In this document: positions 5,267 through 24,374 of the stretch, piece by piece
How positions within the stretch are numbered: position 1 is the stretch's first letter
Layout of the letters: each line of letters begins with the position of its first letter
Virus record (IMG/VR): IMGVR_UViG_3300032328_000910
Direction: 5' to 3' (one strand)
DNA: 64,000 nt
Source: an uncultured virus (IMG/VR IMGVR_UViG_3300032328_000910)
Lineage: Duplodnaviria > Heunggongvirae > Uroviricota > Caudoviricetes > Crassvirales
The notes under the pieces: generated by a model
The model's database searches: none
What the model was told of the DNA's origin: nothing
What the model saw: only the letters and a program-made list of their open reading frames with translations
Position numbers and translations under genes: made by a program

Positions 5267-8200
5267 CTAAAACAGCTTGTAATGATTATAATTCTCGTAT
5301 AGATTATTCCATCTAACAGTTTGATTATAGATAGGTATAGCTTTAAGCATTTCTGTTTGCAGCTTATTCTGTCCATGATAAACACCAGACTTATATATTA
5401 AATCTTCTTCATTACTGAATGGATATAAAATAAGCTGTTGCCCTATTTTAATAGCACTTTCAAGAGTGTTAAACGTAGCAGTAGGAGATTTAAGAATCTT
5501 TTTACTTTCATTAAGCCAACCACCACCTACATAACCAGGTGCAGCAGCTAATGGTACGTAAGTAGTTAATTCGGTAGCAGTGCGGTCAGCTTGATAAATA
5601 GCAAGCATAAGTGCTAATGGCGGTTCTTCGTCATCACCTTTAACATACTTAAGTGCATACAATAACCCAATAGCACTACAGAACGCTAAGTATTCAAGAA
5701 CAGTTCTAATAACATTAGCCTTCTGCGTATCACTAAGTGTTTCCCAATGCACTTTACTACGTGTAAGCATATCTCCATATCCACGTACAATATTGCCAAT
5801 AGCTTTCATTACTCCAATAGCTTCAGCAGTACCTGCTTTATCTCTGAAATCCGATATTGAATCTATAATTGGGCGACCAATGAAATTAAGAGTAGTAAAG
5901 TAAATACCCTCATCTTCCATACTACGACGTTCATTCCAAAACTTAGCACCAAATCGAGTACCAAATCGCTTATTCCATCCAGGTCGCATCCACTTTCTAA
6001 ATTGAATAGCTAAACGACCAAGAGCATATTGTTGCATAGCACCTGCATCCGCTTTGTTATAGATACCATGTAAGTACTGATTAACACCAAGTACACGTCG
6101 CTCAAATTCGGCAATTTCATCCTTTTTAAATACAATCCCTTCTTTAGGACTCATTTTACCATCCTTAAATTCAAACGCTTCATAAACTGAAGTGTGAGTT
6201 TTCCATTGTTCTTTAAGCTCTTTCATAAGCCCTTTGTTCTCACTTAGAGCAGCTTTAGTAAGCTCTTTATCAGACTTATAGCTAATCTCTTTCAGCTTTC
6301 CACGTTTAAATTCATCAAACGACATAATAACACCATCAACTACTTTGTGACTATATGCCATTGCCATCAACGTTCTATTTTGAATGTTATGTTCAGATAT
6401 ATGCTCTAACATATAAGCTTTACTAACAGCGAAGTTAAGACCGCGCATAGCTCGTTGCGCAATAGAAGTATTTTCATTACCGAAAGCAGCTTCTGTAAAG
6501 TCCATAGTAATATTGAAGTATTGTAGAAATGCACTTTGCTTAGTAGATGCTTGACCTTCTCTATCCGCCATGAAACTTATAACACCTAAACCATATTCAG
6601 CTGTAGCTTTAGCCCAATCCCCTGTAGAAAAGAACTGACCAGATACGGACTCTATATGGTTCATAAGAGTACCATAAACTTGATTATTCATAGCACTTAG
6701 AGGATTAAGAGCCATACCTTTAAATGAAGTATAGTTTTGAAGTACACGAGCAACTTTTTGCCAAGCGCCTTCATCAGCTTCAAACTCTTCATAGAATACC
6801 ATTTTAAGCCAATCTTCATAATGAGCAAGCACATTACTCCCAAGAGTAGATTTTTCTACTTCATTATTAACAAAGCCAGCCATCTTTTTAAACTTATCAA
6901 CAACCGGAACTCCATTTTTAGTAACAGAGATTTTATGGTTCTCAATAAAAGACTTACGAACACGAAGCATTTCAAACTCAATAGCTTTCTTATGCTTGTG
7001 TTTAAGAGCTTCATTCATATACAGCTTCATAGTAGCTTTCAAGTCCATATTCACTTCAGCAGCATGAGCTTTCTTGTTATTAATCCTAATTTCTTCATTA
7101 GTACGACGCTTTTGAGCTTTAACTTCTTCACTATCAGTAGACAAAACCTTTTCGTATTGTTTTTGATTAAGCAGATTATTGTATTTAAATGGAAGAAATT
7201 GTACAATATCACCCGCTTCATTAACAATAACACCTTGTTCATTGTCGTATTGACCTGCATCTCTCCAACCTATGTTTTTAGCAATTTGAGCCAATACTCC
7301 CGTATTATTTACAGGGACAGAAGGCAAATATCCATGCTTAACTACACTTTCCTTAGTATGTTCAGTTAGAAACGCAAGCGTGTTAAGAAGATATGTATGA
7401 AAATCTTTTTCTGCATTTGTAAATGTAACATAACGGCTATTCATCCACTTATTAAGAGCGGGTTTGTAATAAGCACCTGTACGGCTATAAGTAGTTGTAC
7501 CTTTAGTATTAGTGTACAATTGTTTAGCTCGCCATTCTTTAAATCCAATTTCACCCAATTGAAGTTTTTTATCGGCTTCCAGCTGCGCAATTTCTTCTTT
7601 AGTCAGTATTTCAGTATTGGCTAATAACCAAGCATTAACAGTTTTAGCAAATCCTTTCTTATTAGTTTTAAACTTTTCTTTATTTTCACTAAACATTTTA
7701 GCGCGAGCTTCGTAATATGCACTGTAATCAAGACGTGGTATTACTTTACCACTCTCTTCGTCGACAAAGCGCATTACATTGCTGCCGCTTGCTTCAAGTA
7801 TCTTTACAGCTTCGTCCCAACGTTTAGTTTCATCTATGACTTCGTCTTTATACTCACGCATTTTATAGTCATACATTTTAATAACGTTAGCCATAAAACT
7901 ATTGTGAGTGTCAGCCATAGCGTCCATGTTACGTTGCATAAAGCTTTCATCCATTTGGGCTTTAAAGAATGCTTGTGTATTATCAAGAACACCTCTACCA
8001 CCATACAAAGGATTAGATGACAATTCAACGTAACGCATATCAAGTTCTTTATTCAGCCTGCCAATTTTAAGTTGCAAATCACTCATAATACCCTCATTAA
8101 CTTTAAGAGCTTTATGAACTTCATTTACTTGTTTAGCGTCAGAACTTGGTAGTTGTCTAATTTTAACTACTTGGCTAAGAAACATATCAGCGTTAATAAG

Positions 8201-10384
8201 AAACGCTAAGAACTCCATATATTGAGGCTTATCAGTTTCTTCAAGCAATTTAATATCTTGCCATGTATAACTGTCATAACCTTTAATAAACTTTGTTACC
8301 ATTGCACCATTCTCATCTGGTACACTAATAGTTCTATGTGACATTTGTGTATAGATACCTTGAAGCCCAGATGTAATAAATCTTGTATAATTGATGATAG
8401 CTTTAGTTTCATCAGCTTCCAACAATTCTTTCATTACGTTTTTAACAATACGTTCAAAACGAATAGCATCATCTACATTTGCAGTCGCTTTCATACGACT
8501 GATACTTTTGTTAAGATTAAGTATAACTTCTTGTATCCATTCATTAGTTTTGTGAAGTTCACTCACTTGGTCACTAAGAGTTTCAATTGTTTCTTCAGTA
8601 GCTGCAATTTCATCAAGTGTTTCGTCGACATTATCTTTACCGAGATAAACAGTTTTAAGTTTATCAGATAAGTCATCCAATGGTAATACACCATCTTCAT
8701 CTGTATCTTTAGTTTGAGCTATTTCAACGTTATGGTAGCGAGTTTCGCCGGTATCTTCTGTAATTGGAGTACCAACTACAGGAATAATAGCCATTTTAAC
8801 TACTTTAAAACCTTTACGTTCAAGCATAAGCTTGTATGTAGATAGCTGAAGGGCGTAGTCATTAGCTTTACTTGGTGGTACACCTTCTAACATATCGTCA
8901 GCGTAAGCCTTATTGTACTTATCTTTAGTATAGAAATAGTTAAACTTACCGCTTTCTTTAGTCTTCCAGTCATATATCATCACATCACCATTAGGAAGCT
9001 CAATCAACAAGTCGATAGTACCTGCAATCCCCATTTCTTCATCAAAAATTTTAATTTCTGAATGAAGTTTATAACCTTTATCATAAAGGCTATCGAGAAA
9101 TTGAGTAATATTGTCAACATAGTCTTCAACTAAAGCTCTGTCCATACCACCGTAGAAACGTACACCGGTACTATCAGGTTCACCTACTTTGTCAGGTACG
9201 TACAAGTTATTAAGTACAGCTTCGCGAGCTTGAGCTTTAGTCATACCTGAATTAATAGCTTTAATATAAGTTTCAGCCATTAAGTGAATACCAGTACCCT
9301 CTTCGCGCTTATCTGCCCATAATTCTTCAATCTGCTCATCAGAGTAAAAATTACCTTGAGCTTCTTGTTTAGCTTTGAAACCCTCGATAGCAGCTTTCTT
9401 ATCGAAAACACCTTTCAAGTTTTCAATTACGTTAGTAACACGTCCCATACGTAAACTTGGGTCATTATCAACTAAGTATGCAGCTTCGTCCGGAGCAATA
9501 GTTAAACGTTTACTATCAAGTTTCAAATCATTGATAGACATTTTATCACCTGTAACTTGAAACTGTTTGTAATTAGCAGGCTTACCTGTAAGGCGGTGTT
9601 TTAATTTACCACCTGTAAGCTCGAATGCAAGACGTTTAACAGGAGTAATACCGATACCAAGTTTTTCAGCTAATGATTTAAGGAAATGTTCAAACCAAAA
9701 CTGCCATGCACGTACCTTACCAATAATATCTTTACCGCTTTCAACGTAGAGTCTTGCACGGTAATCGTGAAGTCGAGCAGCTTCAATACCAATAGCAGTA
9801 GTTAATAGTTCTTTGCCAAACTGCTCATCAGTAAGATGAGGATACATTTTCTTAAGCTGTTTAGCTAACGCAGTGTCTTTCAAATGTTCAATACCACGCT
9901 CTATTACATGGCGGTCGCCATACATATCTACAAGTATGTGACCAAATTCATGCCAAACTGTATCTTTCTTAACTTGACGAGGATTAAACTCAATAGAAGT
10001 TTTACCATTTACAGTAATAACACTACCAAGTGCGCCCATATCGGCATTAAAACTCACTTCGATGTCCAAGCCTGCTTCTTCAAACATACTTGTAAGACTT
10101 TCTATTTGTGAGTTAAAATCTTCCATTGTAATTTCACCCATTTCTGAATGTACTGATTCATCTTTAAGATAACCTTTAGTTTCGCCAGCTTCATTTGTAA
10201 ACTCACCATTTACATCTAAATCAGGTTCGCCATTAGCATCCAATTTACCATTACCAAACCAATTCGCAAATGAATCAGTTTTAGTGTATGCAAAGTTTTT
10301 AATAGCTGTACCTTGCGAAACATTAGCAAGCTTATCATATAAGATAGACTTTTCCCCATTTTTAGCAACAAAACTGCAAGCCAT
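5267..10384 (-). CDS. large ejected virion (cargo) protein with zincin-like and PD-(D/E)XK nuclease domains
   Basis: 1705 aa; HEFGH at 9938-9952; GTIDLL...YDWKT at 8960-9022 followed by YALQLSTY; hydrophobic helices near the C-terminus; lies directly downstream of the vRNAP as in crAss-like phages. Confidence 0.8.
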   Translation of the reverse strand: MACSFVAKNGEKSILYDKLANVSQGTAIKNFAYTKTDSFANWFGNGKLDANGEPDLDVNGEFTNEAGETKGYLKDESVHSEMGEITMEDFNSQIESLTSMFEEAGLDIEVSFNADMGALGSVITVNGKTSIEFNPRQVKKDTVWHEFGHILVDMYGDRHVIERGIEHLKDTALAKQLKKMYPHLTDEQFGKELLTTAIGIEAARLHDYRARLYVESGKDIIGKVRAWQFWFEHFLKSLAEKLGIGITPVKRLAFELTGGKLKHRLTGKPANYKQFQVTGDKMSINDLKLDSKRLTIAPDEAAYLVDNDPSLRMGRVTNVIENLKGVFDKKAAIEGFKAKQEAQGNFYSDEQIEELWADKREEGTGIHLMAETYIKAINSGMTKAQAREAVLNNLYVPDKVGEPDSTGVRFYGGMDRALVEDYVDNITQFLDSLYDKGYKLHSEIKIFDEEMGIAGTIDLLIELPNGDVMIYDWKTKESGKFNYFYTKDKYNKAYADDMLEGVPPSKANDYALQLSTYKLMLERKGFKVVKMAIIPVVGTPITEDTGETRYHNVEIAQTKDTDEDGVLPLDDLSDKLKTVYLGKDNVDETLDEIAATEETIETLSDQVSELHKTNEWIQEVILNLNKSISRMKATANVDDAIRFERIVKNVMKELLEADETKAIINYTRFITSGLQGIYTQMSHRTISVPDENGAMVTKFIKGYDSYTWQDIKLLEETDKPQYMEFLAFLINADMFLSQVVKIRQLPSSDAKQVNEVHKALKVNEGIMSDLQLKIGRLNKELDMRYVELSSNPLYGGRGVLDNTQAFFKAQMDESFMQRNMDAMADTHNSFMANVIKMYDYKMREYKDEVIDETKRWDEAVKILEASGSNVMRFVDEESGKVIPRLDYSAYYEARAKMFSENKEKFKTNKKGFAKTVNAWLLANTEILTKEEIAQLEADKKLQLGEIGFKEWRAKQLYTNTKGTTTYSRTGAYYKPALNKWMNSRYVTFTNAEKDFHTYLLNTLAFLTEHTKESVVKHGYLPSVPVNNTGVLAQIAKNIGWRDAGQYDNEQGVIVNEAGDIVQFLPFKYNNLLNQKQYEKVLSTDSEEVKAQKRRTNEEIRINNKKAHAAEVNMDLKATMKLYMNEALKHKHKKAIEFEMLRVRKSFIENHKISVTKNGVPVVDKFKKMAGFVNNEVEKSTLGSNVLAHYEDWLKMVFYEEFEADEGAWQKVARVLQNYTSFKGMALNPLSAMNNQVYGTLMNHIESVSGQFFSTGDWAKATAEYGLGVISFMADREGQASTKQSAFLQYFNITMDFTEAAFGNENTSIAQRAMRGLNFAVSKAYMLEHISEHNIQNRTLMAMAYSHKVVDGVIMSFDEFKRGKLKEISYKSDKELTKAALSENKGLMKELKEQWKTHTSVYEAFEFKDGKMSPKEGIVFKKDEIAEFERRVLGVNQYLHGIYNKADAGAMQQYALGRLAIQFRKWMRPGWNKRFGTRFGAKFWNERRSMEDEGIYFTTLNFIGRPIIDSISDFRDKAGTAEAIGVMKAIGNIVRGYGDMLTRSKVHWETLSDTQKANVIRTVLEYLAFCSAIGLLYALKYVKGDDEEPPLALMLAIYQADRTATELTTYVPLAAAPGYVGGGWLNESKKILKSPTATFNTLESAIKIGQQLILYPFSNEEDLIYKSGVYHGQNKLQTEMLKAIPIYNQTVRWNNLYENYNHYKLF

Positions 10385-10439: not shown

Positions 10440-13400
10440 TTAATTAGTACAATCAGCACCATTTTCATCAATTTGCTCGTTCTTGTGAGCTTCAAGCAGA
10501 GCGTCACGTTGTTCTAACGTTAAACCCGCTGTTCTAAACTTACCAATATTAACGCTTTCAATAGTTTTACTATATGAAACAACGTCATTATGTACAATTT
10601 TAATAAGCACACCATCTTTAGCAAATTTGTCTAAGTATGTATCAATAGAGCTACCTTTATCTGTTATAACATTCGCTCCATCTTTAATAACATTATACGT
10701 TTTAGCTAAAGTACCTGTTAATTTATTGTTAGGTGCAATTTCACCGACAGGTTTAGTAGAAGTAACGAGTACATTCTCTCCGACATCATATTTGTCTTTA
10801 TTTGAGTTTTTATCTAAGAATATAGATTTAAACTTTGTATCGCCAATATAAGAATCAGAAATCATATAAGCATTTGCAATTGCAGGACGAGTTTCTAACA
10901 ATCTTTTAAATTCAGGAACACCGATGTAATGACCGTTTTGGATAACGTGTTCAAACAAAGCAGGTTCGTGTAGCGCAAGATTATCAGTTATCGTTGTATT
11001 ATCAAGCTCGAACATATTTCTGTTACCCAATTTAGTAACTTCGTAGTATTTAACTGCACCATTCACTTCACCATATTTACGGTACAGTTTAGTTCCTGTT
11101 TTAACTCTAACATTAAAACCATTAACTTTCTGTACAGCGTAGGTTGGCACTGTAATATAAGGAGCTTTTTTGATATTAGCATCATCTTTTAGTAAAGATT
11201 TTGTCGTAACAGTAATAATACCATTATTAGCTACCCAAATAGGTGTGCCATTAGTATTAGAACGTGTTTTATCAGCCCATTTAGTCTGTACATAAGGAAC
11301 AATATTACTATTGCCAGCATTATTACGAATGAAATTATCCATAAAGTTAGGATAATGCTTAGCAAAGTAATCTCTATTTTGCATCTCGAATGCAGCTTTA
11401 TAAAGATGTTCACCGAGTCCAAGTTCTTTAAGTATAGATGTAGGTATTAGCTTACCATAACTATCTTTTTTCATTTCAAATGAAGCAGATACAAAGTTAT
11501 GATTAACTAAATCACGAGCTAAATCGGCAACAAATTCATCTTCGCTATTCCACATTTCAACAATACTATCAGTAAGCCTATCGTCTGTCAAATTGTCTGT
11601 CTTAGTATTGATAAACTCAACCATGTGAGTACCATTACGTTTGACAGTATCGACATCCATTTTCGGCACTAAGTAGTTCATGATGTGAGTATCGTCCGCT
11701 AATTGGTCTTTCATGCGCTGTTTCATTATCATAAGCTTATTAGCGAATGACAACTCTTTAAACGCATCAAAACTAATATCTGAATTGGTTTCAATTTCAG
11801 TAGTTACACCCATAATTCTACCTCTATCCAAGTACTTAAACGCAGGTAATTCTGACATTATAAGATGCTTAGCAAATGTAGATACAGATTTAACTACTTT
11901 CTCATTGTAACCTAATCCTGTAAATCGTTGCACATTGTCAAACAAGTCTTTAAATGCAGGGCTATGTTCAATAAACTCACCACCAAGAACATCGACACTT
12001 AAATCATTAGCAAATTGCTTGTATGTTTCAAGTATAGAATAAACTGATTTGTGAGTCATACCAGCGTAATCAGGATGAACAACCGAACCATTAACAGTTT
12101 GTTTAAAGAATTCAGGGTATATCGCAACAGTAGCCGGAATATCTTTACCGTCTATATTTACAAATACACGAGCACCTTCTCCGAACTTAACGTAGTCTGT
12201 ATCTTTGTATTTAAACTCTTGCTTTTCTGTCTTAGCTTTAGCTTTCGCTTCTGCCAATTCAGCTAAAGTATTATAGTCAGATACATTGAATAACTTAGCT
12301 GTATGATTACGTTTGTTTTTAATCGCAGTAGCAAGTTCGCTTTGTCTGTAATAGTAAGTAGCTTGCTCAATCTTACGATTAAGGCTCTCTGTTTTAGACA
12401 TACTAGGCCCAGCACCAATTTTATCAGTATTGAAAACATTAAGAACGTCGTTATAGGCTTCTCCAGCTTCTTTGTATGTCTTATATGCTTCCAATACTTT
12501 TAATTGTTGTTTAAGGTAAGCTATTAACTTAGCGTTATCGCGGTCTCCATTTTTAAACGTAGCATAATCTGAAAGACCATTGCGAAGTTCATCTATTGCA
12601 AATGCAGTAACAGCTCCACTCTCGATACCAAACAAATCTTTACTCATTTCAGCAGAGATAAAGAAGTTATCATCTCGAACTGCTTGCATAAAGTCTTTGT
12701 CATTTCCAATCTTATGTCCAGCTTTTACCATCTCTTTAATTAGAGCCTTTTGGTACTTTTTCTTAATGTCTTCAATTTCGGTAGTACTACCATCACTGAA
12801 TGCACCTTGATTTTCAAAGAACCTAATAGCTAAATCGTTAAGAATTGGCTGACGAATAAACATAGATGTATATTGAATGTCAATACCGGTATTAAGCATG
12901 GTAATATACGGATAAAAAGTATAAGTATTAACATTATCGGGAATACCTTCCTTAACAATATCAAGAATCATAGCTAACATTTGAGATGCGTGACGAGTAG
13001 TAGTTTTACCCGTAGCATTATCAAAAGAGCCATCTTGATTCCAACCAAGTTGGTTATGGTTAATTTCGATGTATTTAACACCATCTTTAGTTATTTCAGT
13101 ACCTTTACCATATTTACGCTCAAGTTCAGCACGTTGTTCAACCGGATAAAGAATTTTAAAACCTAAGTCTTCGCGAAGCTTCATTTTAGCCACTTGCGCA
13201 ATTGTAAGGAACGCATTACTATCAGCTGCCATACCTTTAAGTGCGCGACCTGCAATATTCTGCTTACGGAAATATAATTGCCCTTCAACAGACATTGCAT
13301 TAATGTCATCACTATCTTCACCGAGTAATGCAGCTACTTCAGCTTTAGCATTCTTACCATCTTCAAATGACTGTGGTGAAAGTGTATCTTTATAGTGAAG

Positions 13401-16400
13401 CGGGTTGCTAAGTATAGATGTCCAAATGTCAATAATACGATTGTCACGAGCTTTACGAGAATTATCTTGTAAAGATTTACTTTCGTCAAATTGTACTTTG
13501 CTATATGTACGTTTACCATCAACGTCATTGACTTCAAAGTGTGGAATTACACCAAACTTCTTATCAACGTCAAAGTCCGCACCAGTAGAAGTAACAATCT
13601 CACGAGGCATTACAATAGTACTACCCATAGATTGAGGTAAAAACCCAACTACTTTAGTATAAACCATACTATACTTCTCTTCAGAAGGAATACGATACCA
13701 AAGCATAGTACGAACTTCTTCAGGAATGTTATTAATATCGTCAAGCTTATATTCACCTGTAACTTCATCTTTGATGTAGAACTTCTCACTCCACGCAGGT
13801 AGTAATACTTCCGCAGCTACTACTTTACCATCAGGTGTAAGTTCAGTCATTTTAAGACTAAAATCATTAGCGTCAACTTTTTCTTTAAGCCAATTGATAT
13901 TGCCCATAGTGGCACTATCATAAGCGTCTAAGTCAATAACCGTAGGTTTAGCAGCTTGATTAAGCTTATTAGTAACGAATACTGAAGAAAGAAGTACGGC
14001 ACTACCGCCAGGTAACTTTTGATTTGTTACATTATTGGTAAATAGAGATGTAAGAATACTTTCCCATTTATTAGCCATGTGACTTACAAACATAGGAAGA
14101 GTAAATTCATTACCATCAATAGTATCAATAAGTTCAATCGCGTCAACATAGTTGTCACTAACTCCACGTCTTTCAATTTCACTAACTAAGACCTCTCTGA
14201 GTTTGTTTTTATCGGGAAATTTATAGCCCGCAGTTCCATCATTACGTGTAAATTTAACTGCTCCGATACGTTCAATAAGATTCGTAGCGTCTTCTTGAAT
14301 ATTAGCCGCCATCGTATCGAAATATATTTGAATAAGCTCACTTGTTTTGTAATCTTTACCGTTAACAGTGTAAATACCATCAGCAGGTAAGTTACTAATA
14401 ATAAGTTTAGCAATTTGAGTACCGAGAAGATTATCAGCGTCCATTAAGTGGTCAGGAACATCTAATTGCACACCCCAGTTTTTATTCTCAAACGTTTTAT
14501 GCGTAAACCCATTATCAACGTGGTAATTATTCAGAGCGTTATCATCTATTTTACCATCTTTATCAGTGATTCGCATTACGTGTGTAATACCAACCTTTTC
14601 AGCAGACTCAAAGAAAACTTCATCAAGCTTATTTTCATTCATCCACTTGTACAGTTTTTCAGCATCAGTTCCCTTAATTAATTGAGGGATAAGTGGGACA
14701 GAAGAATATTTCACTTGGTCAGCTACAAAACGACCTTGAAACTCACTATAAGTTCTACCGTAATAGAAACCTTTAATTGGCTGTAAAAATAGATTAAGGT
14801 CATTAACATCAAGAGTATCACCTTTGCGAACCTTTCTAAAAAGCTTTTCATAATTCTTACTCCAACGTCCTAATCCTTTAACTATCTTTTCATAACGGTC
14901 TATGCTAACGTAGCCTTGACCATCGCCAATATTGATACTATGGTATGCACTTACAATGTCATGAACTGCTTTTTCAAGTTCGTTCAAATCTTCGTCTGCA
15001 TCACGTTTGCTTACTTTAGCTACTCGCATTTCTAAACCTCGCAACTTAGGTTGTTCACGTTTAATTGCAACAGCTACGTTTTCAGCAATGCTACCGTAAA
15101 TATCAGATGCAAGTTCTACGTCTTTGATAGTAGCACCTGTAAACGTTTCACCCATAACTTCAAGTAATGGGCGTACAGATGGAGCAATAGCTTCAAACGC
15201 GCGCTTATTACTATCTTTAGCGTGTTTGTATTCTGCATGGTCACCAATAAAGAAATTAAACTGTTCTACATTTGAAATATGACTGTTAAGCATATATTCA
15301 GCTATAAATTCAGTAAAGTTATTGTAACGAGCATATTGCTCAGTTCCTTTAATAATCTCTTCAGCGTACAGTTCTTTACCCTTTTTGATACGGTTCTCTA
15401 CAAACTTGTGAATACCCGCAGTAATTTCAGTGTCAATAGCTAATTGAGTTTCAGGATTCACATTAAGTACAAATCCATTCTCAAACAGAGATTTAACTTT
15501 AATAGCAGGTATGTTATAAAACTTAAACACATTGCCAGTAGGTTTACCACCATTCATTAGAATTGGCATACCATTTTTATCAGTTTTTTGATAATGGTAA
15601 TTCTTTTCTAATTGATAGTAGTCAACATGAATATCGCTATCATAATCAGGTGAATTGTAAGCTTTATGTTCTTTAGGTATAAATGTACCATCGCCCATAT
15701 CAACATACATCAGTTTTTGCGCAGCTTTCATCTTATCAATCTCCGCATTAACCATATTCTTTAAAGCTTTAAATAAATCACTATTTTCAAGTAATTTACC
15801 GTCTTTAAATATAGCTCTAAAGCGAGGACTTGTAATGAACGGAATGTTAGCTTTATCAGCAGGCACTAAGAATGGTAAACGTATGGTATCAGGGTCACCT
15901 GTTTCAAGATACATAATAAGCTGCGTAGCCATCCATGTACTATCACTCATTTCAGTGTATTTTTCACCTTCCACTTCTGAAAGATTCTTTACACCGTCAA
16001 TTAGACCATAATTCCATTTAGTAACAAAATCCCAATTTATGTCTGCAATAGAATTAGGATATTTATTACCAAGTATAAGACCATTAGTACCATTTGTACC
16101 CATAAGCCAATTGCTACGAGTCATACCATCGCTCATATAAAACTGTTGCATCATTGCAAGTACACGCTCTTTAGCTTGGTCTTGACCAATGTAACGCATA
16201 TCGACAGCAGCCTTAAGTTCTTCAAATAAATTACTCATGAAGTGAGGATTAGTACTACTATATACATTGTTACCTTTAACGTCAAACGAGCTACTTTCAA
16301 TCTTATCGTATTGGAATAGATTTACAACTTGAGATATGTCATTAAGACGACTAAGAGATTGGAATTTATATTCAAGCTTCTCTTCAGCAGTTAGCTTGTT

Positions 16401-19400
16401 GTAAATTCCTATCTCCCTGTAAATAGAAGCCAATCCAGTTTTAAATATATCAGTCCAAACGTCTTTCTGACTACCAAAGCGTTGCCCAATAATAGGGTTA
16501 TTGATAACTTTAGTTAACTGTGTATTTGTAACTACAATGCCAAGATTATTAAGCAAATCAACTGTTTTATCAATTATATCCGCTTTGTTATTATTAAAAC
16601 GGTCTTGATAAGCAAGTTGTTCTAACTCTTTATAAATAGCACCCATTTGTTTTAAATACTCAACACTAAAGTTACCTTGCTCAATCTTAGCAAGGAAATT
16701 AGATTTCCATTCATTAGCAAGTAAGTAATGACTTGTATTTTTGTTACTAACATCAACCTTAATTGAAGTTTCTTGTCCATTATCAAGCAGTATCACATAC
16801 TTATCAGGACTTTGCTTATGAAATTGAGTGTACCAAGCTGCACGTAGATTTTGGTCATTCTCTAAACGCGCAACTATATGTATAATTGCAGGGTCATGGT
16901 TTGACATATTACGTAAGCGGTCAATCATTTCTTCAATAGTAGCAGCTCCAAGCATATTACGCTGAATATAAGGATAAACCTTATTAAAGTCAAGGAAAGT
17001 TTCAAGACCTAAGAAAGTATCAGTATCAGACACATATTCGCCTTCACTATTAATAGCAGTTTTAGGCGTAGTCATAATTACTTTTTTAATGTAATTACTG
17101 ATACTATCTTTACTTGACGTTCCAAATACAGCACCATCATCCCACTTCTTTTCAATCTCCTGCATTTCGAGATTGTCCAAATCTTCATCTTGTGTGATAC
17201 CAAATTGACGACTAACATTTTGTATAGTTTTAGGCATAAATTTATCTAAATCGAGTAATACACGATTGATATTTTTACGCTTATTAGCAGGAACAATTCT
17301 AAGATAACGTTGAAGCTCTGTTTTAATAAACTCTTTAGGAGTTCGCATTGCTTCTGTATTTTGAACAGCAGTATTATCTGCATAATCAACGTACATTTTA
17401 GTCAACAATCCGATTGTTTCGGCTTCTTCAGAACGAGTATAACCCTCGACTACTTTGAAACGTTTAATAGTCTTAGCATAAGCTACTGCTTTGCTATCAG
17501 GCGCGTATTTAAACGTACCACTATCAATAGAAGCAAATAATTTATCAATAGCCTTACTACCACCATAACTACGAGGTTTAAACCAATTTCTAACCCAATC
17601 CCAAAGTTTAGCAAATAAACCTTTAGCCGCGGGAACTACTTTATTAGTTTCACCTTTTTTCAGCATATAATCCATGAACTCATCTGCAATAGCTTCTTCA
17701 AGTTCTAATGCAGTCAAATTGCCATACTTCTCGCGAGCTTCGTCAAGTATTTTACTACGTTGAGCGTCATCAAGGTAAAGCCAAAATACAACGTGAAATG
17801 CTTCGTGATATTCAGTACCACGTACAGCTTGACGACTAATCTTAACCATAGCATCTTCAAATACACCCCAAGCTTGTACACCTTGACGAGTTAAAAGATT
17901 AGCAATGTTAGTATCAAGTGGTATATTGTCGCCAAATACACTTTTCCACCATGTTTCAGCAGCTTGTACGTCAATAGTATTAGCAGCTTTTGTATCAGGC
18001 TTAACAGCTTTTAAACGAGTTACACCTGTACCCAAGTCAATAATTTTAACTAACCATCCATTCGCAGTTTCAGATATTTCAACAGATTGGTTATCTGTCA
18101 ATTTATCAAACACTTCATCAGATGAAGCTAATTCTTCAGCGAGTGCTTTACTGTTAGTAAGAACTTTACCTTCTTTGAAAAGTGTATCAGCAATACTTTG
18201 AACTTCTGTAGCAGCAATATCTTTTGTTTCATCAACGGTAACTGATACGGCTTTAATCTTAGCTTCTAAATCTTTAATACGATTTTGAAGTTCAGTTATT
18301 TGACCGTCAGTGCTGTATTCAGCAATGAAATTATTTTTACCTTTTTTAAGAATATCAATAATAATATTACGAATATCTTGCAAATCCATGTTAGCTAATT
18401 CAGGTGAAGCTTGCATATCTTCAGCAAGTTTTTCAACTGTCTTACCTTTTTTATCTGTAAATGCAGTATTAACATCTTTGCCGACTTTACCGCCAGTTTC
18501 TTTTTTAGCAGACTCTGGAGTAACTTTAAAGCCTTTACTACCAAGTAACTTAGCTATGAAAACTTCAGCTACAAATTCAGGAGTATTAGCCTTAAGCGCT
18601 TCAAGCTTGTCAGTAAGTTCTGCAATTTCATTATACATCTTTTGAACATCATCAACGGCTTCGTCAGTTTTAACCTGTTCTGTAACTTGCTTTGCAGTTT
18701 GACCAATTACACTAAGTTGAGGGTCAATAGCGATAACTAAATTACTATTACGAGCTTTACTTGCCGACTTAGATGTAACCATTGGAATTGGATTACCAAA
18801 GCCGTCTTTAAGTATTTTACCATCTTTACCTTTAATTGGGTCAATATCAATTGTCAATTTACCAGTAGCTAAGAGATAACGAGCGTAGCTTTTATGCCCT
18901 TTATATTCACCTTTAGTTTGAAGGTTTTTAAAATTAACATTGAAACGCTTTTTAGCAAATGCGCGCTTAATCAAGTCTTCAAATATAGCAGGGTTATTCT
19001 CCATGCTCATACGAGAAACCTTACGTCCTTTTTTATTCGTAAGTTGTATAACTTGAGGCTTACCATCTGCATCTAATTGAGTAATTTCAAGGTTAGTAGC
19101 AACTTCAGTAGTCTTTTGAGATGTAAGATAAATATTAGCTGTAAAGCCATCTCCAAATGTAAACTCAATACGGTCACTAAAAACTTTAAGATAATCTTTT
19201 ACACCAGTCTTTTCAGTTTCAGCAACATACATAATATTATTAAGTTCTTTTTTAAGAGCCTTAATATCTTCATTAGCGAGTACGTTTTTAGGTTCTACTT
19301 TTTGAACGTCAATAAGATTACGAATCTTAGTTATGATTTCCATAACTTTATCGTAAGCTTCTTTAGCCGAAGCCTCATCTACACTAACAGTTTCAAGCTT

Positions 19401-22400
19401 AACAGGTATGTATGTACTGCGGTCGCCAATAATACTATTAGCGCCAGGTATAAGCATATAAGCATTACCCACATAATATACACCATCTTGATTAAAATAA
19501 TCAGTAGCGTCGGGATTACGTTCAAACTTATTACCTTCAGACGAAACGAGTTCAGTTGCAAGACCTGCATCAATTACTTTAGGAACAAAGAAAATTTCAT
19601 CAGCTTCAGGATATAAATCCGTAACATTACGTTGTTCTTTACCACTATTTAAATTACCACTTGTTTTGCGAGTGATAGTAGTAGTTACGCGTGCCATTGG
19701 ATTATTACCCCAAATATTAAATAGCTGTTGTTCTATTTGTTTAGTAGTAGCTATTTGTGATTTTAGAATAGCAATGTGAGAACTAAACGGTTTATCACCT
19801 TCATTCGTACCGTTAATTTCACGTAGCTTCCACGCAGCTAAGTTTTTATCACCTTTACTGTATTTTCTATCTTTAGATTCAATAACGGCAGTTAATTCAT
19901 CAGCCGTCATATTATCAAATAGCTCTGCAAATCCAAGCGTTTTTATTAGTCCAGCAGGGCTATTAATAAAACCAATTAAAGTACCTCCAAGTGTTTTAAG
20001 AGCGTAACCTCCAGCAGGAGTCGGTACGATTTCGATAGTAGAACCTTTACCCAACTGTGGATTAAGAACCGTAGATATAATTTTCTCTAAGTCTTTTTGT
20101 TCAACTTGAGGGTCATAGCCATACATTTCTTTAACCGCTTTATTATATGCACCCGCATCTACAACTCCATTAACTATACCTAAGTTTACAAAACTAAGAT
20201 AAATGTTGTTTTCTTGCATATTGTTACCGAGATTATTAGTCGAGGTTACTTCTTCAGTTGCAAGTAAAGTTTGCAGTTCCGCAGGTAAATTGATTTGATT
20301 ATCGGTAATGTATTTAACAACGTCACCTTTAGTAATCATACCATTCGGACCTGTACCTTTAATCTTACTAAAATCAATATCGTAATCTCTTGCAAGAACA
20401 CGAGCTGCTTCTGTAATACGAATCGGAGATGGCATCGGAGCGTTAACCGGTTCTGCATTTACAATAGCTTTAGCAAATAATTCATTTAGTTTAGCTAATG
20501 CGGGTTCAGCATGGAATAACTCCCGCAGCTTTGTTTCTACAGGGGTATTAACAAGATAATCAGCAGTCATTGGACTCGTAAGAAAATATGTAAGTATTTC
20601 TTCAGGATTACTTGAAGTAAGAATCGCATCAGCAATCTCATTCATAGTTTTACGGCCAAAATCACCACCTTTAGCAGCGTATAAATCACGTAAAGCATCT
20701 ATTACAGGTTTTAAAGCTTCGTTAAAATCTTTACGTTCTTCAGGTACACTTCCAGTTTTATCATTCCATACAGGAAAAGCATTATTAAGTACAAAATGTA
20801 CAAACTCATGTGCAAATGCAATTTCAACAAGAAAAGCTAAGTCTTGACCACTTTCTTCAAAAGCTGTAAGTGAAATTGTAATACTGTTCGTAGCAGGATT
20901 AAATTGAGCAATTGCACCGTTATACAAACGCTTATCAGTAATTTCAATTGTAGGACGAATCGGATTTAAACTATAAAACAAGTTGTCAATGTGAGTTGGA
21001 ACTACATATCCATACTTTCTTAGAAATTCTTGCATTACAGTGCGTACATTCGACGCTACACCTTCGTAGTTACCTAAAACTACAAAAACTTCTTTAAGTG
21101 AAGTTACAACGTCAGCATTATTAACAACTGGATTTACAATAACAGTAGATTCAGTAGAAGTAACTATTGTAGCATTCCCTGTAGAAATAGACTGCTCGAG
21201 AACTGAAAGTGCTATTTTACCTTTAACAACTTTACCATTACTATCAGTATAAGAAACTTCAGCCCAAGCTTTACCAAGTTGGTCAGTATACAAACTATTA
21301 ACAGTATAAACATTACCATCTTTAGAATAAGTAGTACCTACTACAACATTTGTAGATGTAGTAAATGTACCATCTGCAGTAGTGTTAGCTTTACCAGCTT
21401 TAGCAAGTTTAATATATTCACCTTTAATACGTTCTTTAGCAGCTTTATTTTCTGCAAATGTAGGACTATCAAATAACTTTTTAAGGTTATCTAATTTCTG
21501 TTTAACAGAAAGCTTTTTATCATTGACAATATTAGCAATCTTATCACTAAACTTATCAAATAACGCACGACGCTGTCCTTCAGAATTCTTTTTACCTCTA
21601 AAGACAGCGAATCCATCAATAACGTCATCGTCTTCAACAGTATTGACGTAATCATTATTAATATCATCTTCTGTAATCCAATTAGTTTCTGTACCAGTTT
21701 CTGTAGTTGGCGCAGTAGGTGTAACTTCAGTCGTAGGTGTAGGTTGAAGTAAAGAAGGTTCAGCTTGTATACGTTGTTGAACACTTTGACGAGCTTTCAT
21801 ATCGGCAAGTTTTTGTTCAGCATACTTACGATATTCTTCGTTCTTTTGGTTCTTAACCTCAATCTCAAGATTAGAAACAACTTGATTAATGTCAGGATTA
21901 GCGAGCAATTTATCAACGCTTACCTTATAATCACCAAATTGTTTTTCTTTAACCCTACGTTCTTCGGCAGCACGATTATTGTCAAAAGCTTTTTGTGCAG
22001 CTTCTCTACCAGTTGAATTATTTAATTCGTTAATACGTTCGTTATTATGCGAAATAGTAGCTTCATATCCAACCCATTCTTTGTGCAAATCAAGTAAGTC
22101 CTTATTTTTAAGGTCTATAATCTCAATTTTACCACCAGCATCATTGATAGATTTAGTAAGTTTTTCTTTCTTAGCTTTAGCTTTATCAATTTTGGATTGA
22201 ATTTCTTTCTTATCCATTTGAAACGTATCCGCGTGTTGAGCTACCAATTCCCAATCTTTGATATATTCATCAAGAGCCTGGATTTCAACTAAGTCACGTG
22301 CGTGAGGATTAGCATGATTTTTAATTTGGTCATCAGTTTCTTCCAATGCTTGCACACGAGATTTAACACTACCTACTGCATCAAGAACTTTTTCGTTCTC

Positions 22401-24374
22401 ATATAGCAAACCTGTTTGTTCTCTAATAATAGCACGCTCGGCTTCGGGTTTTAAACCTTTACCTGCAATATTATTGTAAGCTTTACGGTACGCAGTTTCA
22501 GTTGCAATAATGTCACGTTCCATAATAGAAATAGCATTATCAATATTTTCAAGACCAAAGTTAAGACGCTCTTCTTCGGTAAGATTAGCAACCATTTTGT
22601 CTTTAAATTCTTTAGAACGAACTTGGTCGAGTAGTACATCAATGCTTCTACTTTCAGCTGCATTAATAGCCATATTAAGAGCTAATGCACTTTTCTGTTG
22701 TGAGATAATACGGTCAGCTTTATCACGAGGCATTTTACCGCTATCAACAGCAGCTTGAACTTCTTTAATCTTAGCAGAAAAACCTGCAATTGCCATTTCA
22801 CGATTAGCAATGTTTTTAAGAAGAGCATTTTGTTGTTCTTTAGCAGCTTTGTTTGCACCAGTTACGCGTCCGCCTATCTGTTCAAACGCTACTCCGCCAA
22901 TCATACCCCAAAGACCTGCTTCCCATGCGTCAGCATTTTGCAGATTCTTCATAGTACGTTCAGTGAAAAATTCAGATTCAGGTTCTTCTCCACTTTTATC
23001 TGTACCTATCATCTTTTTACCATAGTACTTACCTTCTTCACCTCCAATGTAATTTATTACTTCTTCTATACCTTCAGTACTCTGTCTACCTACTGCCATC
23101 GCATAGGGCGAAGCATTTGCAAAGGCTCTGCCGAACTTTGTTTTGGGGGCTTGCCCTAAGGCTGTATTTATCTTATTATTGCGAGCTACCCCCCTTGTAC
23201 GCCCTAAGGGACTAAGTATAGTTCCCATTTGGATAAAATCAAAAACGATATTCGCCGAATTTACCTGATAAGTGTAATATCCAGCATTACTCGCAACGTA
23301 GTTAGCAAGGTTCTCTTTAGTTATATCTAAACCTCTTTCCGCAGCCATTTTTACAAAATCCTTGCCTACTTCAGATGCAAGTACTTCATTATACTTTTCA
23401 TCATCGGTAAATGCAGCTAAGCTTTCGCGCTTTACATCATTAACAACTCCGAAAGCTTCTTTAGTATTTTCAGCATGACGCATTACAGCAGCACCTGTTA
23501 ACTGTTTAATTAGGTCTTTAGATGTGCGACCCATATTAGTACCAGCATTTAAGATATTATCTGCGGCAGCTTGCATACGTAGTTTACCAGTAACTTTTTC
23601 TACAGGAGCAGCACCTCTCGCTACTTTAGCAGCTTGAGTTAATTGTTTAAGCTTATTGGCTTTACCCGCTACATTAGTAGCTTTAGCTAAAGCAGAAGTC
23701 ATCATCTTAAATGCAGTAAGAGCTTTAGTAGCACCCAAAGCCGGAACCATCATAGAAAGTGTAGATGCCATGCTAACACCATTCTTAAACCACCACCCAC
23801 TATCGCCAAAAGAAAAGTTACCATCTTCTTTAAGCTGATATATAGGTGTAGTAGCGCGAGTACTGTTTTGAATGTCGTCACCCAAACTAATCATATAATT
23901 ATCAAAGTCGGTAGTACCGCCATAAATAGCATTATAAATCATTTCAGGTGCTTCTCCAAGTGTACCAATAGCTCCAATTGTACCACCTAATATTTCACCA
24001 ACAAGAGATTGATTAACCCAACCTAAAGCTTGTGCACCAAAAGATTGACCACGAGCTCTTTGCGTATTAATATCATCAAGTGATTGGTCAATACGAAGTT
24101 CTTTGATATAATCCTTATATTCATCGCGGTTAATTGTAGACATAAAACCTTGATGAATTTGTTGATTATCTTGTCCACGTTTACCACCTTTAATAACATC
24201 TAAACCTTTTTTATCAGTAGTACCCTGAACGTTAGGTTCTGTTGTAGGTGGAGTAACAGGAACTACAGGAGGTGCAGTAGAACCTCTACTTCCTCGGCTT
24301 GTACCACTTCCAGTTAAAGCACTAAGCCCGCTGCGTAGGTTATCGCCATTGCCATTACCATTGTTATCTGCCAT
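10440..24374 (-). CDS. giant virion-packaged RNA polymerase polyprotein (crAss-type double-psi beta-barrel vRNAP)
   Basis: 4644 aa; catalytic TGADFDVDK (DFDVD at 13563-13577) preceded by YRIP, plus DGQGY, KYS and ESAEKVG motifs of crAss vRNAPs; Gly/Ala-rich hydrophobic N-terminus; two HExxH motifs. Confidence 0.9.
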   Translation of the reverse strand: MADNNGNGNGDNLRSGLSALTGSGTSRGSRGSTAPPVVPVTPPTTEPNVQGTTDKKGLDVIKGGKRGQDNQQIHQGFMSTINRDEYKDYIKELRIDQSLDDINTQRARGQSFGAQALGWVNQSLVGEILGGTIGAIGTLGEAPEMIYNAIYGGTTDFDNYMISLGDDIQNSTRATTPIYQLKEDGNFSFGDSGWWFKNGVSMASTLSMMVPALGATKALTAFKMMTSALAKATNVAGKANKLKQLTQAAKVARGAAPVEKVTGKLRMQAAADNILNAGTNMGRTSKDLIKQLTGAAVMRHAENTKEAFGVVNDVKRESLAAFTDDEKYNEVLASEVGKDFVKMAAERGLDITKENLANYVASNAGYYTYQVNSANIVFDFIQMGTILSPLGRTRGVARNNKINTALGQAPKTKFGRAFANASPYAMAVGRQSTEGIEEVINYIGGEEGKYYGKKMIGTDKSGEEPESEFFTERTMKNLQNADAWEAGLWGMIGGVAFEQIGGRVTGANKAAKEQQNALLKNIANREMAIAGFSAKIKEVQAAVDSGKMPRDKADRIISQQKSALALNMAINAAESRSIDVLLDQVRSKEFKDKMVANLTEEERLNFGLENIDNAISIMERDIIATETAYRKAYNNIAGKGLKPEAERAIIREQTGLLYENEKVLDAVGSVKSRVQALEETDDQIKNHANPHARDLVEIQALDEYIKDWELVAQHADTFQMDKKEIQSKIDKAKAKKEKLTKSINDAGGKIEIIDLKNKDLLDLHKEWVGYEATISHNNERINELNNSTGREAAQKAFDNNRAAEERRVKEKQFGDYKVSVDKLLANPDINQVVSNLEIEVKNQKNEEYRKYAEQKLADMKARQSVQQRIQAEPSLLQPTPTTEVTPTAPTTETGTETNWITEDDINNDYVNTVEDDDVIDGFAVFRGKKNSEGQRRALFDKFSDKIANIVNDKKLSVKQKLDNLKKLFDSPTFAENKAAKERIKGEYIKLAKAGKANTTADGTFTTSTNVVVGTTYSKDGNVYTVNSLYTDQLGKAWAEVSYTDSNGKVVKGKIALSVLEQSISTGNATIVTSTESTVIVNPVVNNADVVTSLKEVFVVLGNYEGVASNVRTVMQEFLRKYGYVVPTHIDNLFYSLNPIRPTIEITDKRLYNGAIAQFNPATNSITISLTAFEESGQDLAFLVEIAFAHEFVHFVLNNAFPVWNDKTGSVPEERKDFNEALKPVIDALRDLYAAKGGDFGRKTMNEIADAILTSSNPEEILTYFLTSPMTADYLVNTPVETKLRELFHAEPALAKLNELFAKAIVNAEPVNAPMPSPIRITEAARVLARDYDIDFSKIKGTGPNGMITKGDVVKYITDNQINLPAELQTLLATEEVTSTNNLGNNMQENNIYLSFVNLGIVNGVVDAGAYNKAVKEMYGYDPQVEQKDLEKIISTVLNPQLGKGSTIEIVPTPAGGYALKTLGGTLIGFINSPAGLIKTLGFAELFDNMTADELTAVIESKDRKYSKGDKNLAAWKLREINGTNEGDKPFSSHIAILKSQIATTKQIEQQLFNIWGNNPMARVTTTITRKTSGNLNSGKEQRNVTDLYPEADEIFFVPKVIDAGLATELVSSEGNKFERNPDATDYFNQDGVYYVGNAYMLIPGANSIIGDRSTYIPVKLETVSVDEASAKEAYDKVMEIITKIRNLIDVQKVEPKNVLANEDIKALKKELNNIMYVAETEKTGVKDYLKVFSDRIEFTFGDGFTANIYLTSQKTTEVATNLEITQLDADGKPQVIQLTNKKGRKVSRMSMENNPAIFEDLIKRAFAKKRFNVNFKNLQTKGEYKGHKSYARYLLATGKLTIDIDPIKGKDGKILKDGFGNPIPMVTSKSASKARNSNLVIAIDPQLSVIGQTAKQVTEQVKTDEAVDDVQKMYNEIAELTDKLEALKANTPEFVAEVFIAKLLGSKGFKVTPESAKKETGGKVGKDVNTAFTDKKGKTVEKLAEDMQASPELANMDLQDIRNIIIDILKKGKNNFIAEYSTDGQITELQNRIKDLEAKIKAVSVTVDETKDIAATEVQSIADTLFKEGKVLTNSKALAEELASSDEVFDKLTDNQSVEISETANGWLVKIIDLGTGVTRLKAVKPDTKAANTIDVQAAETWWKSVFGDNIPLDTNIANLLTRQGVQAWGVFEDAMVKISRQAVRGTEYHEAFHVVFWLYLDDAQRSKILDEAREKYGNLTALELEEAIADEFMDYMLKKGETNKVVPAAKGLFAKLWDWVRNWFKPRSYGGSKAIDKLFASIDSGTFKYAPDSKAVAYAKTIKRFKVVEGYTRSEEAETIGLLTKMYVDYADNTAVQNTEAMRTPKEFIKTELQRYLRIVPANKRKNINRVLLDLDKFMPKTIQNVSRQFGITQDEDLDNLEMQEIEKKWDDGAVFGTSSKDSISNYIKKVIMTTPKTAINSEGEYVSDTDTFLGLETFLDFNKVYPYIQRNMLGAATIEEMIDRLRNMSNHDPAIIHIVARLENDQNLRAAWYTQFHKQSPDKYVILLDNGQETSIKVDVSNKNTSHYLLANEWKSNFLAKIEQGNFSVEYLKQMGAIYKELEQLAYQDRFNNNKADIIDKTVDLLNNLGIVVTNTQLTKVINNPIIGQRFGSQKDVWTDIFKTGLASIYREIGIYNKLTAEEKLEYKFQSLSRLNDISQVVNLFQYDKIESSSFDVKGNNVYSSTNPHFMSNLFEELKAAVDMRYIGQDQAKERVLAMMQQFYMSDGMTRSNWLMGTNGTNGLILGNKYPNSIADINWDFVTKWNYGLIDGVKNLSEVEGEKYTEMSDSTWMATQLIMYLETGDPDTIRLPFLVPADKANIPFITSPRFRAIFKDGKLLENSDLFKALKNMVNAEIDKMKAAQKLMYVDMGDGTFIPKEHKAYNSPDYDSDIHVDYYQLEKNYHYQKTDKNGMPILMNGGKPTGNVFKFYNIPAIKVKSLFENGFVLNVNPETQLAIDTEITAGIHKFVENRIKKGKELYAEEIIKGTEQYARYNNFTEFIAEYMLNSHISNVEQFNFFIGDHAEYKHAKDSNKRAFEAIAPSVRPLLEVMGETFTGATIKDVELASDIYGSIAENVAVAIKREQPKLRGLEMRVAKVSKRDADEDLNELEKAVHDIVSAYHSINIGDGQGYVSIDRYEKIVKGLGRWSKNYEKLFRKVRKGDTLDVNDLNLFLQPIKGFYYGRTYSEFQGRFVADQVKYSSVPLIPQLIKGTDAEKLYKWMNENKLDEVFFESAEKVGITHVMRITDKDGKIDDNALNNYHVDNGFTHKTFENKNWGVQLDVPDHLMDADNLLGTQIAKLIISNLPADGIYTVNGKDYKTSELIQIYFDTMAANIQEDATNLIERIGAVKFTRNDGTAGYKFPDKNKLREVLVSEIERRGVSDNYVDAIELIDTIDGNEFTLPMFVSHMANKWESILTSLFTNNVTNQKLPGGSAVLLSSVFVTNKLNQAAKPTVIDLDAYDSATMGNINWLKEKVDANDFSLKMTELTPDGKVVAAEVLLPAWSEKFYIKDEVTGEYKLDDINNIPEEVRTMLWYRIPSEEKYSMVYTKVVGFLPQSMGSTIVMPREIVTSTGADFDVDKKFGVIPHFEVNDVDGKRTYSKVQFDESKSLQDNSRKARDNRIIDIWTSILSNPLHYKDTLSPQSFEDGKNAKAEVAALLGEDSDDINAMSVEGQLYFRKQNIAGRALKGMAADSNAFLTIAQVAKMKLREDLGFKILYPVEQRAELERKYGKGTEITKDGVKYIEINHNQLGWNQDGSFDNATGKTTTRHASQMLAMILDIVKEGIPDNVNTYTFYPYITMLNTGIDIQYTSMFIRQPILNDLAIRFFENQGAFSDGSTTEIEDIKKKYQKALIKEMVKAGHKIGNDKDFMQAVRDDNFFISAEMSKDLFGIESGAVTAFAIDELRNGLSDYATFKNGDRDNAKLIAYLKQQLKVLEAYKTYKEAGEAYNDVLNVFNTDKIGAGPSMSKTESLNRKIEQATYYYRQSELATAIKNKRNHTAKLFNVSDYNTLAELAEAKAKAKTEKQEFKYKDTDYVKFGEGARVFVNIDGKDIPATVAIYPEFFKQTVNGSVVHPDYAGMTHKSVYSILETYKQFANDLSVDVLGGEFIEHSPAFKDLFDNVQRFTGLGYNEKVVKSVSTFAKHLIMSELPAFKYLDRGRIMGVTTEIETNSDISFDAFKELSFANKLMIMKQRMKDQLADDTHIMNYLVPKMDVDTVKRNGTHMVEFINTKTDNLTDDRLTDSIVEMWNSEDEFVADLARDLVNHNFVSASFEMKKDSYGKLIPTSILKELGLGEHLYKAAFEMQNRDYFAKHYPNFMDNFIRNNAGNSNIVPYVQTKWADKTRSNTNGTPIWVANNGIITVTTKSLLKDDANIKKAPYITVPTYAVQKVNGFNVRVKTGTKLYRKYGEVNGAVKYYEVTKLGNRNMFELDNTTITDNLALHEPALFEHVIQNGHYIGVPEFKRLLETRPAIANAYMISDSYIGDTKFKSIFLDKNSNKDKYDVGENVLVTSTKPVGEIAPNNKLTGTLAKTYNVIKDGANVITDKGSSIDTYLDKFAKDGVLIKIVHNDVVSYSKTIESVNIGKFRTAGLTLEQRDALLEAHKNEQIDENGADCTN

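Follow-up and report, generated by a model that had tools for sequence, protein, structure and literature searches.

What is a docking domain of central metabolism doing in a protein that a bacteriophage would inject with its DNA? Peripheral subunit-binding domains (PSBDs) are textbook parts of the complexes of central metabolism, in which they hold partner enzymes. The question is raised by a stretch of 64,000 nucleotides (hereafter the window) from an uncultured virus of the Crassvirales, IMG/VR record IMGVR_UViG_3300032328_000910. In this window a preliminary description, made from the sequence alone, had placed the PSBD of an E2 acyltransferase inside a giant open reading frame (ORF), which was taken for a virion RNA polymerase (RNAP). 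The explanation that we favour, although we would not yet call it probable, is that the domain is a remodelled docking module, captured long ago, which does not hold its partner in the way E2 canonically holds E3 and E1.

A genuine peripheral subunit-binding domain

Four features define the element, all on the minus strand:
10440 to 24374, minus strand: giant polyvalent virion protein (P0001), 4644 residues, from the ORF list and translation, RNAP homology and motifs.
20424 to 20456, minus strand: Pro/Ala-rich linker AEPVNAPMPSP, residues 1307–1317, on the N-terminal side of the PSBD, read directly.
20307 to 20426, minus strand: PSBD core, residues 1317–1356, consisting of helix 1, a GTG loop and helix 2, from PF02817, matches in the Protein Data Bank (PDB), and AlphaFold2 with Foldseek.
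20271 to 20306, minus strand: phage-specific C-terminal extension of the PSBD, residues 1357–1368, from the PSBD and region alignments.

Residues 1317–1356 are confirmed as a genuine PSBD homologue. For an 80-residue piece, the Pfam family PF02817 (E3_binding) gave 45.4 bits (E 9.4e-12), where the gathering cut-off is 23.7 bits, and profile positions 6–35 of 36 were covered. For the whole protein of 4644 residues the score was 37.1 bits (E 3.5e-9), and E3_binding was the only significant Pfam family. A phmmer search of PDB sequences returned 45 matches at E<=1, nearly all of them PSBDs of E2 or E3BP chains, the top match being 1w4i_A (E 1.3e-7). The sequence reads as it had been quoted, and so do the Pro/Ala linker starting at residue 1307, the position after the first zincin (HEFVH at 1189) and the replacement of the conserved Arg of 'GRI' by Met (M1346). 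Reading the PSBD coordinates on the plus strand was ruled out, the translation being full of stops.

The fold expected in the preliminary description was recovered as well. In the AlphaFold2 model of the 80 residues, two helices (26–34 and 53–62, in 80-residue numbering) are joined by a short turn; the model confidence (pLDDT) is 91–95 for the PSBD core and 64–65 for the linker AEPVNAPMPSP, whose sequence varies across relatives. Compared with the PDB by Foldseek, this two-helix model found PSBD entries at all of ranks 1–36, most with a root-mean-square deviation (rmsd) of 0.5–2 Å and many of about 1 Å over about 40 residues. Other folds started only at rank 37, with E >=3 and a probability <=0.05. 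The alignment given to AlphaFold2 held 21 rows, six from phages and 15 from E2, and the E2 rows favour a PSBD fold; since the sequence evidence is independent of the model, the identity of the domain stands regardless.

Set beside the solved PSBDs of E2 and E3BP (1w4i, 1ebd, 1w85, 2eq7-9, 3rnm), the phage copy has the same signature, A-basic-x-L-A ... G-T-G-x-x-G-x-I-x-x-x-D-V, the same length, the two-helix fold at about 1 Å and a Pro/Ala-rich N-terminal linker. It differs in that the loop Arg is replaced by Met, the helix-1 Pro by Glu and the second basic residue by Val. N1344 and T1348, invariant in the phage copies, are found in addition, as is a conserved extension at the C-terminal end, and the domain sits in a phage polyprotein. 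The phage protein is not an E2 acyltransferase, because neither a lipoyl domain nor a 2-oxoacid_dh catalytic domain was matched in it by Pfam. In contrast, a true E2 that came up in the survey described below (P0123, 402 residues) contains Biotin_lipoyl, three E3_binding and 2-oxoacid_dh matches. In this P0123 the three PSBDs stand in tandem and the catalytic domain is short or truncated, only profile positions 5–113 of 232 being matched.

A block confined to a small clade

The order of domains along the 4644-residue protein is an N-terminal region, zincin-1, PSBD, a conserved domain, zincin-2 and the two-barrel RNAP catalytic part. The landmarks other than the PSBD are the following:
20469 to 21017, minus strand: zincin-1 domain, residues 1120–1302, with HEFVH at residues 1189–1193 (20796–20810), from our own hidden Markov model (HMM) and the HExxH motif.
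19755 to 20222, minus strand: conserved downstream domain, residues 1385–1540, from our own HMM.
17793 to 17807, minus strand: HEAFH motif of zincin-2, residues 2190–2194, from HMMER matches.
13563 to 13577, minus strand: DFDVD catalytic motif of the two-barrel RNAP, residues 3600–3604, from a motif search.

Relatives were obtained from an exhaustive HMMER search of 1.84 billion representative proteins, with residues 1050–2249 (1200 residues) as the query. It gave 451 matches at E<=0.001, most of which align to the zincin-2 region; the block was surveyed in the 150 matches listed, 86 of them of at least 2000 residues. The PSBD was found at the equivalent site in all five of the nearest giant relatives: P0002 (4981 residues, 39% identity), P0003 (3983 residues, N-truncated), P0004 (5073 residues), P0006 (4456 residues) and P0007 (4876 residues). 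For P0002, P0003, P0004 and P0006 the identity is 31–39% over the 1200-residue query and the alignment runs through the PSBD. PF02817 itself scored 35.1 bits in P0003, 23.3 in P0002 and 22.9 in P0006, the last two just below the cut-off. The copy in P0004 was matched by our own profiles, and that in P0007, which is diverged and has a small insertion, by our phage-PSBD profile (independent E-value, iE, 1.4e-5).

The profiles made for zincin-1, the PSBD and the downstream domain matched proteins of this clade only among the 150 matches listed, with the exception of P0123, which was matched by the PSBD profile. Taken singly, the zincin-1 HMM matched only P0002, P0004, P0006 and P0007, and the HExxH motif is kept in 5/5 clade members that include the region. 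The downstream domain was matched in P0002, P0003, P0004, P0006 and P0007 (iE 1e-65 to 4e-26) and in no other protein listed, and it always follows the PSBD. The giant ORF thus contains two separate HExxH zincin domains, the clade-specific zincin-1, immediately upstream of the PSBD, and the widely conserved zincin-2, whose counterpart in crAss001-type phages is a separate gene annotated 'putative RNA-polymerase subunit'. Zincin-1 had a weak SprT-like Pfam match in P0002 (E 0.0012, below cut-off), and in the Atlas its nearest neighbours are the LPD23/LPD1 clusters of polyvalent proteins, a placement that we treat as no more than a lead. P0006 and P0007 are full-size and lack the exact DFDxD string; their catalytic motif may be a variant, or their RNAP part may have diverged.

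Outside the clade the domain was not seen in the named Crassvirales searched. A six-frame search for PF02817 at E<=0.1 found none in five named genomes (two Jahgtovirus, Hacihdavirus, Carjivirus and Kehishuvirus), while PF02817 was found in 11 of 14 control genomes, including that of B. thetaiotaomicron. Megablast and tblastn of the PSBD region gave no match in the phage collection. With the 57-residue PSBD as the tblastn query, three records of that collection appeared at E<=1: a Salmonella record, through its own E2 (E 9e-3), and Listeria and Pseudomonas phage records, at unannotated places (E 0.06–0.08). Searches by shared words or by pattern, including two IMG/VR pieces, found no relatives, and only the exhaustive HMMER search revealed the clade. 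The survey of this site that had been proposed therefore places the PSBD in a small clade and not in the five named genomes. The known Crassvirales cargo proteins (phi14:2 gp65/gp66/gp67; crAss001 gp47/gp49/gp50) have the same DFDxD RNAP, HExxH zincin and location in the virion module, whereas the PSBD block is seen in one small uncultured clade only.

On this evidence the PSBD has long been maintained by selection within a clade-specific block, and it is neither a recent insertion in this phage nor a general feature of crAss phages. The proposal that a cellular E2 module had been captured is borne out as homology, but the capture is not special to one phage, the PSBD being present in 6/6 proteins that bear the block.

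When 185,579 species genomes were scanned by pattern, 25 E2 loci came up, a biased set in that all of them were pulled by one peptide pattern from the window. The closest cellular PSBDs in it belong to a Thermoproteota archaeon (65% identity) and a Desulfobacterales bacterium (59%); those of Bacteroidota (Flavobacterium, Pedobacter, Prolixibacteraceae) reach 46–54%, and the best matches are spread over archaea and many bacterial phyla. In a 42-column tree of phage and E2 copies, the six phage copies fall on one side of a branch (support 82/80, and 84% of bootstrap trees), the window copy having the shortest branch among them, and the donor lineage is not resolved. A Bacteroidota origin was dropped in view of the scattered best matches and of the tree without a resolved donor. 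The simplest reading is a single capture by an ancestor of the clade, with which the tree is compatible and which is favoured because the position of the PSBD is common to the clade.

The binding face and its possible partners

The residues with which E2 PSBDs grip E3 and E1, which we take to be the equivalents of Geobacillus R135, R139 and R156, were compared between 15 E2 copies and the six phage copies:
Pro starting helix 1: 15/15 in E2, 2/6 in phages, Glu in the window.
First basic residue of helix 1: 15/15 in E2, 5/6 in phages, R1325 in the window.
Second basic residue of the helix-1 pair: 14/15 in E2, 1/6 in phages, Val in the window.
Basic residue at the position four residues on: 6/15 in E2, 2/6 in phages, R1329 in the window.
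Loop Arg of 'G-R-I': 13/15 in E2, 2/6 in phages, M1346 in the window.
Net charge of the core: mean +3.1 in E2, -1 to +2 in phages, +2 in the window.

Across the six phage copies the position of the loop Arg is occupied by M (window), R, N, Q, R and T. The residues flanking this variable position, N1344 and T1348, are invariant in all six and variable in E2. Overall, A, T-G, N, T and D are the invariant elements of the clade PSBDs and most surface positions vary. The C-terminal extension (residues 1357–1368) is kept in 5/6 clade members and absent from E2 PSBDs. In eukaryotic E2 and E3BP, the Arg beside the loop Gly has been described as universally preserved (PMC10156792); the window PSBD has no Arg there. 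As far as aligned sequences can tell, the canonical binding face is remodelled and under its own, different constraint, because the Pro, the basic pair and the loop Arg are mostly lost and because invariant residues and an extension are found in the phage copies only.

The favoured explanation can be put as follows. Consider an ancestor of the small crAss-like clade that captured a PSBD once from a cellular E2 acyltransferase gene. The domain would have persisted since then, flanked by short variable linkers, as a small bead strung between the HExxH zincin and the conserved domain; this tethered-bead picture is drawn because the linkers on both sides of the PSBD are short, poorly conserved and of low pLDDT. 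During infection the cargo protein would be pushed partly unfolded through the tail, and the fast-folding PSBD would refold on its own and then dock a partner protein by a grip unlike that of E2. Partial unfolding and refolding of crAss cargo during ejection has been proposed (PMC10172136), and the titles of PDB entries 1w4e to 1w4k describe PSBDs as ultrafast folders. The partner may be a new protein, from the host or from the phage; the one concrete candidate is host E3. A 460-residue model of zincin-1, the PSBD and the downstream domain had a mean pLDDT of 48.7 (six-row alignment), which is too poor to judge their packing.

Several points weigh against a remodelled module with a changed grip. 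The explanation is built on lost features rather than on a positive signal, such as an alternative partner. Of the six copies, that of the window resembles E2 most closely (45 bits, versus 35, 23 and 23, and the shortest branch), and it keeps both R1325 and R1329. The loop Arg is missing from two of the 15 E2 PSBDs, that of a Flavobacterium sp. metagenome-assembled genome (MAG; L009:3001-3117, a 395-residue ORF) and that of L025, both with Ala, which suggests that this Arg is not strictly universal in bacterial E2. The comparison itself sets only six phage copies beside an E2 set biased by the window-derived pattern. Finally, docking with a stand-in E3 reached the mark, if weakly.

This last result bears on the rival that survives best, namely that the PSBD still docks host E3 and/or E1 as it does in E2, and so tethers the polyprotein or a zincin fragment to the dehydrogenase complexes, which would serve as host cofactor, scaffold, landmark or target. 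We hold this to be a real possibility, though on the unlikely side. Binding of E3/E1 is the only known function of PF02817 domains, the window copy is far above the PF02817 cut-off, the first basic residue of helix 1 is kept (basic in 5/6 phage copies) and a second Arg follows four residues on. PF02817 proteins and lipoamide dehydrogenase do occur in Bacteroidota, the B. thetaiotaomicron control among them.

The complex prediction proposed for this case was made with two E3 copies and phage residues 1313–1366, using a phage-only alignment. E3 was represented by a stand-in, the lipoamide dehydrogenase of the Flavobacterium MAG that also gave an E2 match. The complex scored 0.54 (runs 0.45, 0.59 and 0.54), versus 0.00 for the best of three controls, with at least 88% contact agreement between runs and a partner pLDDT of at least 78. 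The mark was reached in a benchmark by 116 of 157 solved complexes and by 2 of 215 mismatched pairs, and scores of 0.60 or less were seen in only 18 of those 157 and in both mismatches that passed, so that support from a score of 0.54 is weak. The pass may reflect likeness to the repeatedly solved E3-PSBD complexes, that is, a memory of an often-solved fold, and not binding by the phage copy. The prediction, made with a stand-in, raises the likelihood of E3 binding only slightly.

Against canonical docking stand the absence of the loop Arg from 4/6 phage copies, including that of the window, and the extensive loss of the helix-1 basic pair, the Pro and the positive net charge. The position of the loop Arg is free to vary (M, R, N, Q, R, T), unlike a conserved E3 grip. 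The preliminary description had suggested that the injected protein recruits or sequesters E3/E1 at the start of infection. Recruitment is not supported so far, the E2-grip residues being poorly kept in the clade and the docking prediction a weak pass. Sequestration was rejected on stoichiometry: roughly six copies of the RNAP-associated proteins are estimated per crAss001 virion (PMC10172136), and so few copies cannot titrate an abundant enzyme.

Could the domain have no partner at all? A tiny, stable, ultrafast-folding PSBD might act as a refolding aid or as a spacer between the zincin and the next domain, a role that we regard as improbable. It would suit the invariant clade residues (A, T-G, N, T, D), if these are only fold-determining while the surface mostly varies, as well as the standing of PSBDs as classic ultrafast folders (PDB entry titles) and the need of the cargo to partly unfold and refold (PMC10172136). 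However, N1344 and T1348 in a surface loop and the C-terminal extension vary hardly or not at all among the phage copies, which is not so in E2, and this points to a specific contact. Moreover, many simpler spacers exist, and a recognisable PSBD kept across lineages less than 40% identical suggests a function.

Another variant would make the PSBD an address label, which docks the adjacent zincin or the polyprotein onto the E3/E1 dehydrogenase megacomplexes of the host. The two HExxH zincins are putative metallopeptidases. If this were true, the few injected molecules could cleave E2 at its exposed Ala/Pro linkers, or rewire the complexes otherwise, and central carbon and redox metabolism would be switched within seconds, before phage gene expression. 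Since a few catalytic molecules would suffice, the objection raised against sequestration is avoided. We nevertheless judge such a role quite improbable.

It is very improbable that the domain is a nucleic-acid-binding module of the SAP/HeH type that holds the zincin/RNAP polyprotein on the incoming phage DNA. Its size and two-helix layout resemble those of SAP-type domains, and the giant protein acts on DNA; but the net charge of the phage copies (-1 to +2) is below that of E2 PSBDs, and with PSBDs at all of Foldseek ranks 1–36 there was no SAP, LEM or HeH among the matches listed. That the resemblance is fortuitous or a mis-annotation, as the shortness of the domain (36 profile positions) might suggest, is refuted for all practical purposes by a Pfam score twice the gathering score, the PDB matches, the fold match and the conservation in relatives.

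The giant gene, its surroundings and its meaning

The ORF had been called a crAss-type virion RNAP, and this assignment holds. Its residues 3000–3800 are 24–30% identical (tblastn) to what crAss002 and other phages encode as the 'putative RNAP catalytic subunit'; the matches lie in 144 phage records, all crAss-type, with at least 80% query coverage in 50. It has DFDVD at residue 3600, a form of the DFDxD motif reported for crAss virion RNAPs (10.1101/2020.03.07.982082). It also lies in a crAss-type block of virion genes, with a major capsid protein (phrog_11589), a portal (phrog_6547) and TerL (phrog_6681), and neighbouring genes match the Pfam families CrAss_Ring_1, CrAss_Ring_2 and CrAss_Ring_3_4 of tail ring proteins. 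No phage in the collection searched has a major capsid protein more than 39% identical to this one, every match being from Crassvirales. By analogy to phi14:2 and crAss001, we infer that the giant protein is packaged in the virion and injected.

Sequence comparison indicates that in this ORF the zincin 'RNAP subunit' and the RNAP catalytic subunit are fused. Polyprotein fusions of RNAP and zincin cargo are known in some crAss-like phages, in which cleavage is suspected (10.1101/2020.03.07.982082). The PSBD lies about 2,250 residues upstream of DFDVD, in the N-terminal, non-polymerase half. That it is embedded in the virion RNAP is therefore true of the ORF, although it belongs to the zincin part, a separate gene in crAss001-type phages, and not to the polymerase proper; of the mature polymerase the statement is perhaps untrue. 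Another low-complexity linker, rich in Thr, Pro and Ala (60–70% P+A+T per 20-residue window), covers residues 871–900 (21675–21764, minus strand); it is probably a domain boundary and possibly a processing site.

Further features of the window were noted. Directly downstream of the giant gene is an ORF of 1705 residues (5267–10384, minus strand), which matches a PD-(D/E)XK nuclease (Pfam PDDEXK_1, E 4.9e-7; phrog_298 exonuclease) and is possibly a further large cargo or early protein. Elsewhere in the window are the following:
111 to 1064, plus strand: ATP-dependent DNA ligase.
2505 to 3188, plus strand: MazG/PRA-PH-like pyrophosphohydrolase.
55909 to 56601, minus strand: Amidase_3 endolysin candidate.
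No tRNA genes were found within the 64 kb. The G+C content is uniform (35–38%), and the GC skew is negative in 8/8 bins of 8 kb; it is most pronounced (-0.09 to -0.18) between 8001 and 56000, the part in which the large ORFs are mostly on the minus strand.

Giant injected multidomain proteins with zincin-like MPTase domains and virion RNAPs have likewise been described as polyvalent proteins, and their zincins were proposed to process the polyprotein (PMC5512222; Iyer, Burroughs, Anand, de Souza and Aravind, 2017). The main text of that work contains none of the terms E3-binding, lipoyl, dihydrolipo and peripheral subunit; its supplementary domain tables might list a PSBD. Our literature search found no published description of a PSBD in a phage virion protein, although the supplementary tables of PMC5512222 and PMC7886860 might list one, and this agrees with the earlier statement that none was known in crAss virion RNAPs.

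A conserved PSBD in a protein that enters with the DNA is possibly the first handle on the huge non-polymerase parts of crAss cargo. Should it bind E3/E1, the earliest moments of crAss infection would be linked to the carbon and redox metabolism of the host. Should it bind another partner, nature would have supplied a clean case of rewiring in a metabolic docking domain. Either way, the list of domains known from phage polyvalent proteins grows by one.

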